IMG/VR virus record: IMGVR_UViG_2744054976_000004
Length of the DNA: 5,090 nucleotides
Direction: 5' to 3' (one strand)
Source of the DNA: a virus
Taxonomy: Duplodnaviria; Heunggongvirae; Uroviricota; Caudoviricetes
Shown: in pieces, positions 1 through 5,049 of the stretch
How the letters are laid out: each line of letters starts with the position of its first letter
Numbering within the stretch: the first letter of the stretch is position 1
The notes under the pieces: model-generated
What the model was told of the DNA's origin: nothing
What the model saw: only the letters and a program-made list of their open reading frames with translations
The model's database searches: none
Program-made: the position numbers and the translations under genes

Positions 1-686
1 CGGGCAAAGGCGATGATGTATTCGCGGAACACATACGCCTGCGTTTTACTGGCCGACAGAAAAATCTGGTTATGACCGGTTTTCAGGGCGCGCAGCAGCG
101 CCTCGCGGGAAAAATAAAACGTCGCGCCAATCTGGCGGGATTTCAGGATATCGCGGATGCGGTGCTCAAGCCCGGCGCGATACCAGTGCAACTGATAGTC
201 GAAAGACTGCTCAAAGAAAATCTGCTCCAGCTTTTCGATGGCCTCGTCACTGAAAAAATTCTTTTTCGGTTTGCGACGCCCGCCTTTGTTGCGGTTAGCG
301 ACGTTCGGATTAAGGTCTGCCTCGTTGCCGGTCTGACTGTAGCGGTTTACCCGTGCCAGTCGTTCAATCTGGCGTCCCAGCAGGTCAATTTCCTTGAAGT
401 CACCGCCGGTTTTCTGCGGTTTGATGATGAGCTGGGTCAGCCGCGCTTCCAGACTCATTTCGACACGGCTGATGGGGGCAACGCTGTCCCAGCCGTCGCG
501 CTGTTTCCAGCTCTGCACCGTCGGGCGTTTCATCTGCAACATGGCGGCAATCTGCGGCACGGAAAACCCCTGCCAGTACAGCAGCGCCGCCTGACGACGC
601 GGGTCGTGAAGTGCTGTTGTGTCAGTGATAAGCCATCCGGGACTGATGGCGGAGGATGCGCATCGTCGGGAAACTGATGCCGACAT
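1..686 (-). CDS. P: Terminase large (ATPase) subunit gpP, N-terminal 228 codons; the rest of the gene lies beyond the left edge of the window
   Basis: Minus-strand frame is open from 686 down to position 1 (hand-translated, no stop). Start ATG is the reverse complement of 684-686, preceded on the minus strand by GAGGAG (revcomp of 691-696) with a 4-nt spacer. Translation begins MSASVSRRCASSAISPGWLITDTTALHDPRRQAALLYWQGFSVPQIAAMLQMKRPTVQSW... and continues ...ILKSRQIGATFYFSREALLRALKTGHNQIFLSASKTQAYVFREYIIAFA. It contains an HTH-like segment and a KSRQIGAT motif (plus 120-143) resembling the deviant Walker A of large terminases. Divergent orientation next to O matches P2 gene P. It is absent from the supplied ORF track only because it runs off the window edge. 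Confidence 0.85.
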   Translation of the reverse strand, partial: MSASVSRRCASSAISPGWLITDTTALHDPRRQAALLYWQGFSVPQIAAMLQMKRPTVQSWKQRDGWDSVAPISRVEMSLEARLTQLIIKPQKTGGDFKEIDLLGRQIERLARVNRYSQTGNEADLNPNVANRNKGGRRKPKKNFFSDEAIEKLEQIFFEQSFDYQLHWYRAGLEHRIRDILKSRQIGATFYFSREALLRALKTGHNQIFLSASKTQAYVFREYIIAFA

Positions 687-800
687 GTGACTCCTCTAAT
701 CACTATTCAGGACTCCTGACAATGGCAAAAAAAGTCTCAAAATTCTTTCGTATCGGCGTTGAGGGTGACACCTGTGACGGGCGTGTCATCAGTGCGCAGG
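600..800. promoter_or_regulatory. Divergent late-promoter region for leftward P and rightward O transcription; exact -10/-35 and activator sites not resolved
   Basis: The P and O start codons are only 35 bp apart (687-721) and that gap is occupied by the two facing SD sequences, so promoter elements must lie inside the coding ends. Short inverted repeats are visible: GTGA-N9-TCAC (687-703), TGACA-N13-TGTCA (766-788) and TCAGT-N15-ACTGA (622-646). No exact TGT-N12-ACA box was found. Confidence 0.35.
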
Positions 801-1576
801 ATATTCAGGAAATGGCCGAAACCTTTGACCCGCGAGTCTATGGTTGCCGCATTAACCTGGAACATCTGCGCGGCATCCTGCCTGACGGTATTTTTAAGCG
901 TTATGGCGATGTGGCCGAACTGAAGGCCGAAAAGATTGACGATGATTCGGCGCTGAAAGGCAAATGGGCGCTGTTTGCGAAAATCACCCCGACCGATGAC
1001 CTTATCGCGATGAACAAGGCCGCGCAGAAGGTCTATACCTCAATGGAAATTCAGCCGAACTTTGCCAATACAGGCAAATGTTATCTGGTGGGTCTGGCCG
1101 TCACCGATGACCCGGCAAGCCTCGGCACGGAATACCTGGAATTCTGCCGCACGGCAAAACACAACCCTCTGAACCGCTTCAAATTAAGCCCTGAAAACCT
1201 GATTTCAGTGGCAACGCCTGTTGAGCTGGAATTTGAAGACCTGCCTGAAACCGTGTTCACCGCCCTGACCGAAAAGGTGAAATCCATTTTTGGCCGCAAA
1301 CAGGCCAGCGATGACGCCCGTCTGAATGACGTGCATGAAGCGGTGACCGCTGTCGCTGAGCATGTGCAGGAAAAACTGAGCGCCACTGAGCAGCGCCTTG
1401 CTGAGATGGAAACCGCCTTTTCCGCACTTAAGCAGGATGTGACTGACAGGGCGGATGAAACCAGCCAGGCATTCACCCGCCTGAAAAACAGCCTCGACCA
1501 CACCGAAAGTCTGACCCAGCAGCGCCGCAGCAAGGCCACCGGCGGTGGCGGTGACGCCCTGATGACGAACTGCTGA
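722..1576 (+). CDS. O: Capsid scaffolding protein / prohead serine protease gpO
   Basis: Same frame as track ORF 656..1576. Preferred start is ATG 722 (AGGA at 709-712, 9-nt spacer), giving 284 aa beginning MAKKVSKFFRIGVEGDT, the length I recall for P2 gpO. Asp19 (776-778), His48 (863-865) and Ser107 (1040-1042) sit where the gpO protease triad is reported. The C-terminal third is alpha-helical/coiled-coil-like, as expected for a scaffolding domain. Confidence 0.92.
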   Translation: MAKKVSKFFRIGVEGDTCDGRVISAQDIQEMAETFDPRVYGCRINLEHLRGILPDGIFKRYGDVAELKAEKIDDDSALKGKWALFAKITPTDDLIAMNKAAQKVYTSMEIQPNFANTGKCYLVGLAVTDDPASLGTEYLEFCRTAKHNPLNRFKLSPENLISVATPVELEFEDLPETVFTALTEKVKSIFGRKQASDDARLNDVHEAVTAVAEHVQEKLSATEQRLAEMETAFSALKQDVTDRADETSQAFTRLKNSLDHTESLTQQRRSKATGGGGDALMTNC

Positions 1577-1634: not shown

Positions 1635-2708
1635 ATGCGCCAGGAAACCCGCTTTAAATTTAATGCCTATCTGTCCCGTGTTGCCGAACTGAACGGCATC
1701 GACGCCGGTGATGTGTCGAAAAAATTCACCGTTGAACCGTCGGTCACCCAGACCCTGATGAACACCATGCAGGAGTCCTCTGATTTTCTGACCCGCATCA
1801 ACATTGTGCCGGTCAGCGAAATGAAAGGGGAAAAAATTGGTATTGGTGTCACCGGCTCCATCGCCAGCACCACCGACACCGCCGGTGGCACCGAGCGTCA
1901 GCCGAAGGACTTCTCGAAGCTGGCGTCAAACAAGTACGAATGCGACCAGATTAACTTCGATTTTTATATCCGCTACAAAACGCTTGACCTGTGGGCGCGT
2001 TATCAGGATTTCCAGCTCCGTATCCGTAACGCCATTATCAAACGCCAGTCCCTTGATTTAATCATGGCCGGTTTTAACGGCGTGAAGCGTGCCGAAACCT
2101 CTGACCGCAGCAGCAATCCGATGCTGCAGGATGTGGCGGTCGGCTGGCTGCAGAAATACCGCAATGAAGCCCCGGCGCGCGTGATGAGCAAGGTCACTGA
2201 CGAGGAAGGGCACACCACCTCTGAGGTCATCCGCGTGGGTAAGGGCGGTGATTATGCCAGCCTTGATGCACTGGTGATGGATGCGACCAACAACCTGATT
2301 GAGCCGTGGTATCAGGAAGACCCTGACCTTGTGGTGATTGTGGGACGTCAGCTACTGGCGGACAAGTATTTTCCCATCGTCAACAAGGAGCAGGACAACA
2401 GCGAAATGCTGGCCGCTGACGTCATCATCAGCCAGAAACGCATCGGCAACCTGCCAGCGGTACGCGTCCCGTACTTCCCGGCGGATGCGATGCTCATCAC
2501 GAAGCTGGAAAACCTGTCCATCTACTACATGGATGACAGCCATCGCCGCGTGATTGAGGAAAACCCAAAACTCGACCGCGTGGAGAACTACGAGTCAATG
2601 AACATTGATTACGTGGTGGAAGACTACGCCGCCGGTTGTCTGGTGGAAAAAATCAAGGTCGGTGATTTTTCCACACCGGCTAAGGCGACCGCAGAGCCGG
2701 GAGCGTAA
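1635..2708 (+). CDS. N: Major capsid protein gpN (HK97-fold precursor)
   Basis: Track ORF 1635..2708, 357 aa, ATG preceded by AGGA at 1625-1628 (6-nt spacer). The sequence MRQETRFKFNAYLSRVAELNGIDAGDVSKKF... is recognisable as P2-family gpN, and 357 aa matches P2 gpN. Confidence 0.95.
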   Translation: MRQETRFKFNAYLSRVAELNGIDAGDVSKKFTVEPSVTQTLMNTMQESSDFLTRINIVPVSEMKGEKIGIGVTGSIASTTDTAGGTERQPKDFSKLASNKYECDQINFDFYIRYKTLDLWARYQDFQLRIRNAIIKRQSLDLIMAGFNGVKRAETSDRSSNPMLQDVAVGWLQKYRNEAPARVMSKVTDEEGHTTSEVIRVGKGGDYASLDALVMDATNNLIEPWYQEDPDLVVIVGRQLLADKYFPIVNKEQDNSEMLAADVIISQKRIGNLPAVRVPYFPADAMLITKLENLSIYYMDDSHRRVIEENPKLDRVENYESMNIDYVVEDYAAGCLVEKIKVGDFSTPAKATAEPGA

Positions 2709-2711
2709 CCG

Positions 2712-3455
2712 ATGACGAGTCCCGCACAGCGCCACATGATGCGGGTCTCGGCAGCGATGACCGCGCAGCGGGAAGCCGCCCCGCTGCGACATGCAACTGT
2801 CTATGAGCAGATGCTGGTTAAGCTCGCCGCAGACCAGCGCACACTGAAAGCGATTTATTCAAAAGAGCTGAAGGCCGCGAAAAAACGCGAACTGCTGCCG
2901 TTCTGGTTGCCGTGGGTGAACGGCGTGCTGGAGCAGGGCAAAGGTGCACAGGATGACATTCTGATGACGGTCATGCTGTGGCGTCTGGATACCGGCGATA
3001 TTAGCGGTGCGCTGGAGATTGCCCGTTATGCCCTGAAGTACGGTCTGACCATGCCGGGTAAACACCGCCGCACCCCGCCATACATGTTCACCGAGGAGGT
3101 GGCGCTAGCGGCCATGCGCGCCCACGCTGCCGGTGAGTCTGTGGATACCCGCCTGCTGACGGACACCCTTGAACTGACCGCCACGGCTGACATGCCTGAT
3201 GAAGTGCGCGCAAAGCTGCACAAAATCACTGGTCTGCTTCTGCGTGATGGTGGTGATGCCGCCGGTGCGCTGGCTCACCTGCAACGTGCGACACAGCTCG
3301 ACTGTCAGGCAGGCGTCAAAAAAGAGATTGAACGACTGGAGCGGGAGCTGAAACCGAAGCCGGAGCCGCAGCCAAAAGCGGCCACCCGCGCCCCGCGTAA
3401 GACCCGGAGCGTGACACCGGCAAAACGTGGACGCCCGAAAAAGAAAGCCAGTTAA
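2712..3455 (+). CDS. M: Terminase small (DNA-recognition/endonuclease) subunit gpM
   Basis: Track ORF 2712..3455, 247 aa. Start is 3 nt after the N stop (TAA ccg ATG), with GGGAG at 2699-2703. Recognisable as P2 gpM and the same length. The C-terminus is a Pro/Lys/Arg-rich basic tail. Confidence 0.93.
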   Translation: MTSPAQRHMMRVSAAMTAQREAAPLRHATVYEQMLVKLAADQRTLKAIYSKELKAAKKRELLPFWLPWVNGVLEQGKGAQDDILMTVMLWRLDTGDISGALEIARYALKYGLTMPGKHRRTPPYMFTEEVALAAMRAHAAGESVDTRLLTDTLELTATADMPDEVRAKLHKITGLLLRDGGDAAGALAHLQRATQLDCQAGVKKEIERLERELKPKPEPQPKAATRAPRKTRSVTPAKRGRPKKKAS

Positions 3456-3554: not shown

Positions 3555-4064
3555 ATGATGACGCTGATTATTCCGCGAAAGGAGGCTCCCGTGTCCGGTG
3601 AGGGTACGGTGGTCATCCCGCAACCGGCAGGCGACGAGCCGGTGATTAAAAACACGTTCTTTTTTCCCGATATCGACCCGAAGCGCGTCCGGGAACGTAT
3701 GCGCCTTGAGCAGACCGTCGTCCCCGCCCGTCTGCGTGAGGCCATCAAGTCAGGCATGGCGGAGACGAATGCGGAGCTGTACGAGTACCGCGAACAGAAA
3801 ATTGCCGCCGGTTTTACGCGTCTGGCGGACGTCCCGGCGGACGACATCGACGGTGAAAGCATCAAAGTTTTTTACTACGAGCGCGCCGTGTGTGCGATGG
3901 CGACCGCGTCGCTTTATGAACGTTATCGCGGTGTGGATGCCAGTGCGAAAGGCGACAAGAAGGCCGACAGCATTGACAGCACCATTGATGAACTTTGGCG
4001 GGATATGCGCTGGGCGGTGGCGCGTATCCAGGACAAGCCGCGCTGCATCGTGAGTCAAATCTGA
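3555..4064 (+). CDS. L: Head completion / capsid completion protein gpL
   Basis: Same frame as track ORF 3495..4064, which starts at a GTG with no SD. Preferred start is ATG 3555 (AGAGG at 3545-3549, 5-nt spacer), giving 169 aa MMTLIIPRKEAPVSGEG..., the length of P2 gpL. The second ATG at 3558 is an equally possible start. Confidence 0.9.
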   Translation: MMTLIIPRKEAPVSGEGTVVIPQPAGDEPVIKNTFFFPDIDPKRVRERMRLEQTVVPARLREAIKSGMAETNAELYEYREQKIAAGFTRLADVPADDIDGESIKVFYYERAVCAMATASLYERYRGVDASAKGDKKADSIDSTIDELWRDMRWAVARIQDKPRCIVSQI

Positions 4065-4270: not shown

Positions 4271-4552
4271 ATGACAGCAGAAGAAAAAAGCGTCCTGTCG
4301 CTTTTCATGATTGGGGTGCTGATTGTTGTCGGCAAGGTGCTTGCCGGTGGTGAACCCATCACCCCGCGTCTGTTTATCGGGCGCATGTTACTCGGTGGTT
4401 TTGTCTCGATGGTTGCCGGTGTTGTTCTGGTGCAGTTTCCTGACCTGTCACTGCCTGCGGTGTGCGGTATCGGCTCCATGCTGGGTATCGCCGGTTATCA
4501 GGTGATTGAGATTGCCATTCAGCGCCGCTTTAAGGGCAGGGGGAAACCGTAA
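4271..4552 (+). CDS. Y: Holin gpY (class I-like, three predicted transmembrane segments)
   Basis: Track ORF 4271..4552, 93 aa, with GGAG at 4261-4264 (6-nt spacer). Three hydrophobic stretches (SVLSLFMIGVLIVVGKVLAGG, LFIGRMLLGGFVSMVAGVVLVQF, PAVCGIGSMLGIAGYQVIEIAI) are followed by a basic C-terminus QRRFKGRGKP. Same position and length as P2 gpY. Confidence 0.92.
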   Translation: MTAEEKSVLSLFMIGVLIVVGKVLAGGEPITPRLFIGRMLLGGFVSMVAGVVLVQFPDLSLPAVCGIGSMLGIAGYQVIEIAIQRRFKGRGKP

Positions 4553-5049
4553 TGCCGGTTATTAACACGCATCAGAATATCGCCGCCTTTCTCGACATGC
4601 TGGCCGTGTCCGAAGGGACGGCAAACCATCCGCTGACGAAAAACCGGGGCTATGACGTGATAGTCACCGGACTGGACGGGAAGCCGGAAATTTTCACCGA
4701 CTACAGTGACCACCCGTTCGCACATGGTCGACCGGCGAAGGTGTTTAACCGTCGCGGTGAAAAATCCACGGCCTCCGGTCGCTATCAGCAGCTTTACCTG
4801 TTCTGGCCGCATTACCGCAAACAGCTTGCCCTGCCGGATTTCAGTCCGTTGTCACAGGACAGACTTGCCATTCAGTTGATCCGCGAACGCGGTGCACTGG
4901 ATGACATCCGGGCGGGACGCATTGAGCGCGCCATTTCACGCTGTCGCAATATCTGGGCGTCCCTGCCGGGTGCCGGTTACGGTCAGCGTGAGCATTCACT
5001 GGAAAAACTGGTCACCGTCTGGCGTACCGCTGGCGGCGTACCGGCTTAA
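4552..5049 (+). CDS. K: Endolysin gpK (lambda R-type lytic transglycosylase family)
   Basis: Track ORF 4552..5049, 165 aa. Start overlaps the Y stop (TAATG at 4550-4554), with a purine-rich AGGGGGA upstream. Motifs AFLDMLAVSEGT (Glu21), GYDVIV and NIWASLPGAGYGQ match my recollection of lambda R and P2 gpK. Confidence 0.93.
   Translation: MPVINTHQNIAAFLDMLAVSEGTANHPLTKNRGYDVIVTGLDGKPEIFTDYSDHPFAHGRPAKVFNRRGEKSTASGRYQQLYLFWPHYRKQLALPDFSPLSQDRLAIQLIRERGALDDIRAGRIERAISRCRNIWASLPGAGYGQREHSLEKLVTVWRTAGGVPA

Follow-up and report, generated by a model that had tools for sequence, protein, structure and literature searches.

The window, i.e., the whole 5,090-bp stretch of DNA analyzed here, comprised the late region of a P2-like prophage, with a divergent gene P followed by O-N-M-L-X-Y-K, in agreement with the gene order and domain content of Peduovirus, and its DNA was ~98–99% identical to that of P2-group phages (Table 1). 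The earlier note had recognized P2-type, divergently transcribed P and O genes in this sequence, which the gene table and the identity to P2 confirmed. Gene P ran off the left contig end and carried the Pfam domains Terminase_5 and Terminase_6N on the public record, while the exact O protein, presenting Phage_GPO_N, was found in 20,804 blocks of the public collection. The domains annotated on the source contig were Terminase_5/6N, Phage_GPO_N, Phage_cap_P2, Phage_term_smal, Phage_GPL, Phage_tail_X, and Phage_holin_3_2. The 165-aa product encoded at 4552–5049 on the plus strand, corresponding to the P2 endolysin K, had no Pfam match in the contig gene tables, and the RefSeq name for its homologue is glycoside hydrolase family 24 protein.

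Table 1. Coordinates of genes and control elements in the 5,090-bp window
Feature	Position	Strand	Basis or remark
Gene P, terminase large/ATPase subunit, from codon 11 (His) on	1..608	–	Matches P2 gpP from residue 11
Placeholder AA for NN (assembly/scaffold gap)	609..610		Record comparison and flank mapping on P2
Ogr/delta-type activator site common to divergent PO and PP	612..642		Identical to P2 3057–3087
PO –10-like hexamer GAAACT	670..675	+	–12 to –7 of the start; GGAAACT invariant in 8 sequences
O-operon transcription start (G)	682..682	+	Homologous to P2 3127; leader of 40 nt before the O ATG
Chance ATG (686..684) with GAGGAG (697..692), within the O mRNA leader	684..697	–	P2 and cross-genus comparison
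Gene O, capsid scaffold/protease, 284 aa	722..1576	+	ORF list; ribosome-binding site AGGA 709–712
TGACA-N13-TGTCA dyad, O codons 15–23	766..788		Coding-sequence coincidence
Gene N	1635–2708	+	ORF list
Gene M	2712–3455	+	ORF list

Source record and its two N positions

The exact-protein look-up with the window gpM returned three contigs in all, and one of them, LRXG01000007.1 (GCA_001563385.1), from the draft genome of E. coli LV46221, corresponded to the entire 5090-bp window. The base-by-base comparison revealed only two differences, namely at positions 609–610, where the record reads N,N and the window A,A. The gene table of this record agreed with that of the window, and P was called there as 1–608 only. 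The short N runs by which CLC scaffolding joins contigs have a length that is an estimate only. The LV46221 draft had been obtained from Nextera XT/MiSeq 2×150 reads assembled de novo with the CLC Genomics Workbench into 200 contigs (PMC4876607).

The contig (1–5090) breaks within P and just past K, which suggests repeat-induced breaks, e.g., by the presence of more than one P2-like prophage, or else a clonal sister isolate assembled alike. Moreover, the record of LRXG01000007.1 states "Samples with this contig: 2", suggesting a second assembly with the same contig, probably from a sister isolate. This recurrence could mean that the assembly problem was reproducible or, less likely, that a real structural peculiarity exists at the gap.

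The 92 bp absent from the P-O spacer

In comparisons with relatives, a block of DNA was consistently absent from the window at this very point. The megablast search of positions 400–1100 against phage records resulted in two-piece alignments for every match listed, spanning 791 bases in the record versus 701 in the query, and the same was observed for the whole window, where every match listed was again split in two and spanned 5180 versus 5090 bases (+90 bases). The matches listed for complete E. coli genomes were likewise split in two, with the same 90 additional bases. When fiAA91-ss, Wphi, P2, and E. coli prophages were aligned to the window, the missing block fell between window positions 608 and 611, and the exact mapping of both flanks demonstrated that P2 2964–3055 (92 bp) was replaced by AA, so that P2 coordinates correspond to window +2445 to the right of the gap and to window +2355 to its left. 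The DNA identity to relatives was 99.5–100% up to base 608, and positions 611–760 were base-for-base identical to P2.

The 92 bp were present at the gap point in every relative examined, comprising 116 phage records, ~1,500 complete E. coli genomes, and the contigs with identical O, N, or M proteins, and the contiguous junction of the window was found in none of these phage records or E. coli genomes covering the region. Similarly, 22–26-mers spanning the AA junction gave zero matches in IMG/VR, GTDB species genomes, and JGI metagenomes. The 173-bp P-O spacer was found in 22/22 of the other contigs listed as encoding an identical O, N, or M protein (two sharing gpM and twenty sharing gpO or gpN), and 21 of these 22 harbored the full 590-aa P, the exception being called at 498 aa with P running off the contig end. 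In the phages compared, the true P-O spacers measured 173 bp in P2, fiAA91-ss, and Wphi; 165 bp in 186, Klebsiella phi7.1, EtG, and FSL SP-004; and 150 bp in YenM. The window presented instead only 35 bp counted from an ATG at 686, or 113 bp if the count begins at the last confirmed P codon (608), and thus lacked the Peduovirus trait of a ~150–173-bp spacer holding both promoters, owing to the NN gap. The apparent deletion is resolved by the Ns at 609–610 of the source record. A genuine deletion from P2 by one clean event or by microhomology was also considered and rejected, as the replacement of 92 bp by AA could not be derived in either way.

The Ns of the record, the absence of the 92 bp, and the identity to P2 were all observed directly. 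They point, with a probability of about 0.93, to the 35-bp spacing of the P and O starts being an artefact of a two-base assembly gap, NN rendered as AA, that hides ~92 bp, and the LV46221 sequence within the gap is presumably wild type. The earlier note had reported start codons 35 bp apart, which holds for the literal letters (ATG 686..684 and O ATG 722–724) but not for the genome. The Shine-Dalgarno sequences that it described, GAGGAG on the minus strand and AGGA (709–712) on the plus strand, are indeed both present in the window, and the geometry that it called face-to-face is properly back-to-back.

It is also conceivable that the sequence in the gap differs from the wild-type stretch, being for example a variant, an unresolved mix of two P2-like prophages, or a small insertion. 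The breaks of the 5-kb contig in P and after K, as happens when related prophages confuse assembly, and the 2–4 copies of the region held by many E. coli genomes would fit such a scenario. However, both flanks were exact up to the gap, and the 92 bp were uniform in the P2-type loci compared, except for a 2-bp deletion in E. coli E302, which makes a non-wild-type content very improbable.

Probable content of the gap and the apparent start of P

According to P2, the missing stretch (P2 2964–3055) contains P codons 1–10 (MTITTDTTLL), the ribosome-binding site, the 22-nt 5′ UTR, and the P transcription start at 3016, as well as the PP –10 hexamer TAGCCT (3023–3028) and the upstream sequence to about –39. 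The p12 promoter feature of phage 186 maps to the same missing stretch. The core of PP, with its –10 TAGCCT and its start ~55 bp leftward of the activator dyad, was thus not found in the window since it falls in the NN gap, and its absence reflects missing data rather than the phage. The earlier note had reasoned that each of the divergent late promoters must overlap the 5′ end of the opposing coding sequence, which does not stand, as the real spacer has 173 bp and the PP core lies in the missing ~92 bp.

The minus-strand ATG at 686 is a chance codon, and its GAGGAG is the complement of CTCCTC at 692–697 on the plus strand. The P2 counterpart of this ATG opens an ORF of 26 codons in the same frame as P, which stops at a TAG within the missing piece. 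The change from 92 to 2 bp, a net loss of 90 bp (30 codons), keeps the ATG and P in one frame and deletes the sole intervening stop, and it thereby fuses this chance ORF to P. Furthermore, ATG 686 and GAGGAG were both absent in 186, Klebsiella phi7.1, EtG, ENT4, and FSL SP-004, and therefore they do not represent a conserved start.

This open frame with its strong GAGGAG-ATG, together with a net loss that is a multiple of three, could otherwise be taken as the trace of a real ~90-bp deletion in LV46221, in which the Ns would be ambiguous base calls and the PP core, the P transcription start, the ribosome-binding site, and the P start codon would have been lost. The record nominally claims a distance of 2 bp, i.e., only two unknown bases, and defective P genes do exist in nature, as exemplified by the frameshifted P of E. 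coli E302. Nevertheless, N runs within Illumina draft contigs normally represent scaffold joins, the junction occurred in no other genome or contig examined, and the ATG and GAGGAG were not conserved beyond the P2 species group. In addition, the sigma-70 scan of window positions 400–1100 revealed no promoter-like site on the minus strand, and hence none upstream of ATG 686, and leftward of the activator site no usable –10 was found at the proper distance. The sole candidate for a leftward promoter generated by the junction, TGTACT at 580..575, lacked the –11 A and was wrongly spaced, at 58.5 bp, and it was rejected. A real deletion is therefore very unlikely, albeit the foremost of the alternatives weighed here. 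If it were true, P and Q, coding for the terminase large subunit and the portal, would be left without an Ogr-dependent promoter and, no substitute promoter being visible, would not be expressed, and the prophage would be packaging-defective, while the activator site and PO would be intact and the capsid, tail, and lysis proteins would still be made on induction. Alternatively, the recruited ATG 686 would give rise to an N-terminally altered terminase P fusion. Such a deletion, if real, would perhaps also be present in the sister isolate of LV46221.

The E302 prophage (NZ_AP022362.1) is an example of genuine decay at the P/O locus. It presented a 2-bp deletion (TAAAAG to TAAG) in P codons 9–10, at the extreme 5′ end of P, and both its P and O were annotated in RefSeq as frameshifted pseudogenes.

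An imperfect direct repeat with copies ~90 bp apart was observed in P2, at about 267–292 and 352–380 of the P2 extract, the right copy corresponding to window 609–635. Of the two copies, AAAGAGTGGTGTCTGTGGTGATGGTCAT spans P codons 1–10 and TAAGGTGCTGTTGTGTCAGTGATAAGCCAT makes up the left half of the activator site. Due to this repeat, the sequence of the false fusion protein (…ITDTTALHD…) is similar to the genuine N-terminus of P (MTITTDTTLLHD…). The left copy was weaker in 186, and the repeat may be a chance occurrence, an old duplication, or the cause of the assembly break.

The activator site shared by PO and PP

The region that remains between the gap and gene O is the P2 PP/PO control region, already mapped and annotated, and the anomaly that had been perceived in it is not real. 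In the P2 GenBank record (AF063097/NC_001895), positions 3057–3087 carry the label "activator binding site; pO, pP promoters", and further features of the same record are the P start (2993, minus strand), the transcription starts of the P and O operons (3016 and 3127, respectively), and the O ATG (3167). The core dyad of this site, TGT-N12-CCA at window 618–635, preserves five of the six consensus bases, and the two annotated starts, separated by 111 bp, each lie 55.5 bp from its center at 626.5 (P2 3071.5). An element of partial dyad symmetry resembling TGT-N12-ACA near –55, as expected of P2/186-type late promoters, was thus found for PO. The alignment with the mapped P2 PP/PO region proposed in the earlier note was run, and it recovered the shared site at 612–642, although not the PP part, which is absent in the gap.

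The TGT-N12-ACA consensus has been stated for the P2 promoters PP, PO, PV, and PF (PMC3931495). The exact motif, which the earlier note had failed to find around the start codons, was absent from the whole window (0 observed versus 1.09 expected by chance), and at one mismatch or fewer there were 18 sites against 18.2 in shuffled sequences. A match to this motif was consequently rejected as a site identifier by itself, and, because such matches occur at the chance rate, the assignment of the activator site is based on homology to annotated sites. In this light, TGT-N12-CCA at 618–635, previously regarded as the nearest candidate, proved to be the center of the annotated pO/pP activator site of P2. 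As for the suspicion that either the consensus was imperfect or the site had diverged, the former explanation is correct, given that P2 itself carries TGT-N12-CCA, and the activator site is the known one, undiverged, with a consensus that is imperfect at this promoter pair.

The conservation of these elements was assessed in an alignment of eight sequences, in which the window and P2 were joined by six more phages representing five additional genera. All eight had CTGTTGTG, GGAAACT, and the GA of the start site unchanged, and the remaining spacer diverged. In YenM_31.17, a perfect TGT-N12-ACA was found in register with the window dyad. The PO start and a weak –10 without a good –35 were recognized by homology only, and the sigma-70 consensus scan revealed no full promoter at PO, as expected for an activator-dependent promoter. 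The identity to P2, together with the annotations of the P2 and 186 records, suggests the canonical P2 architecture at the LV46221 locus, in which a single activator site at 612–642 would serve two divergent starts inside a 173-bp P-O spacer. Zinc-finger activators of the Ogr type would bind this shared site and drive PO rightward, from the start at 682, and PP leftward, from a start predicted within the gap. The activator would probably be Ogr-dependent; the 5-kb contig does not include the ogr gene.

A second dyad had been put forward as a candidate activator site, TGACA-N13-TGTCA. This dyad is present in O codons 15–23 as described, but its role as an activator site was rejected, since it was broken by synonymous third-position changes in 186, Klebsiella phi7.1, EtG, YenM, and FSL SP-004, and in P2 and 186 the activator site of PP has been mapped to another position. 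The number of such repeats was not statistically unusual either, as eight perfect 5-nt inverted repeats with 8–20-nt spacers were observed at 536–872 versus 4.0 ± 2.4 in shuffled sequences. These results also bear on a literal reading of the window, in which P would truly start at 686 and two diverged activator sites (618–635 and 766–788) would serve promoters overlapping the 5′ ends of the opposing genes. Such a reading agrees with the literal window sequence only; on the other hand, it requires placeholder bases to keep its frame open, the promoters mapped in P2 and 186 and their shared activator site are annotated elsewhere, and the dyad at 766–788 is neither conserved nor significant. The NN of the source record and the P2 annotation, taken together, refute this reading, the probability of which is practically negligible.

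The shared-site arrangement has counterparts in known systems. The window is like the P2 PP/PO region in its TGT-N12-CCA dyad, –10 GAAACT, start G, leader, ribosome-binding site, and O start, and it differs in the lack of the 92 bp with PP, the P transcription start, and P codons 1–10, owing to the assembly gap. In phage 186 (NC_001317), a B-protein site labeled "activation of pV and p12 promoters", equivalent to window 616–635, is likewise common to two divergent promoters (features 3753–3790, 3798–3817, and 3828–3865), TGT-N12-CCA occurs in register, and the CGCTAAGGTGCTGTTGTGT block and GGAAACT are conserved, whereas the overall identity is ~79%, the spacer has 165 bp, and the chance minus-strand ATG/GAGGAG is missing. 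Similarly, in the Stenotrophomonas P2-like phage Smp131, one 18-bp TGT-N12-ACA-like dyad (nt 4381–4398) was assigned to both PP′ and PO′; in contrast to the window, Smp131 is a distant phage and its dyad was predicted from sequence only (PMC3931495).

The underlying biology would be that of textbook P2, with two divergent late promoters at equal distances on either side of a single Ogr-type activator site, and the window provides nothing new on late-gene regulation. Its relevance concerns mainly quality control, as Ns silently turned into a base can generate false ORFs, false gene starts, and false "overlapping promoter" puzzles.

Two minor observations were made in this region. CTGACA-16-CAAAAT at 716–743 on the plus strand, straddling the O start codon, was the only sigma-70 consensus match in 400–1100; it was identical in all P2-group relatives because it consists mostly of coding or ribosome-binding sequence, and it is probably a chance match. 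Besides, the block TCGCTAAGGTGCTGTTGTGT (window 603–620) was conserved from P2 to 186, Klebsiella phi7.1, and EtG, with a difference at one base in FSL SP-004, and it extends ~8 bp leftward beyond the activator site annotated for P2, so the binding determinants may extend further toward PP than the P2 annotation indicates.
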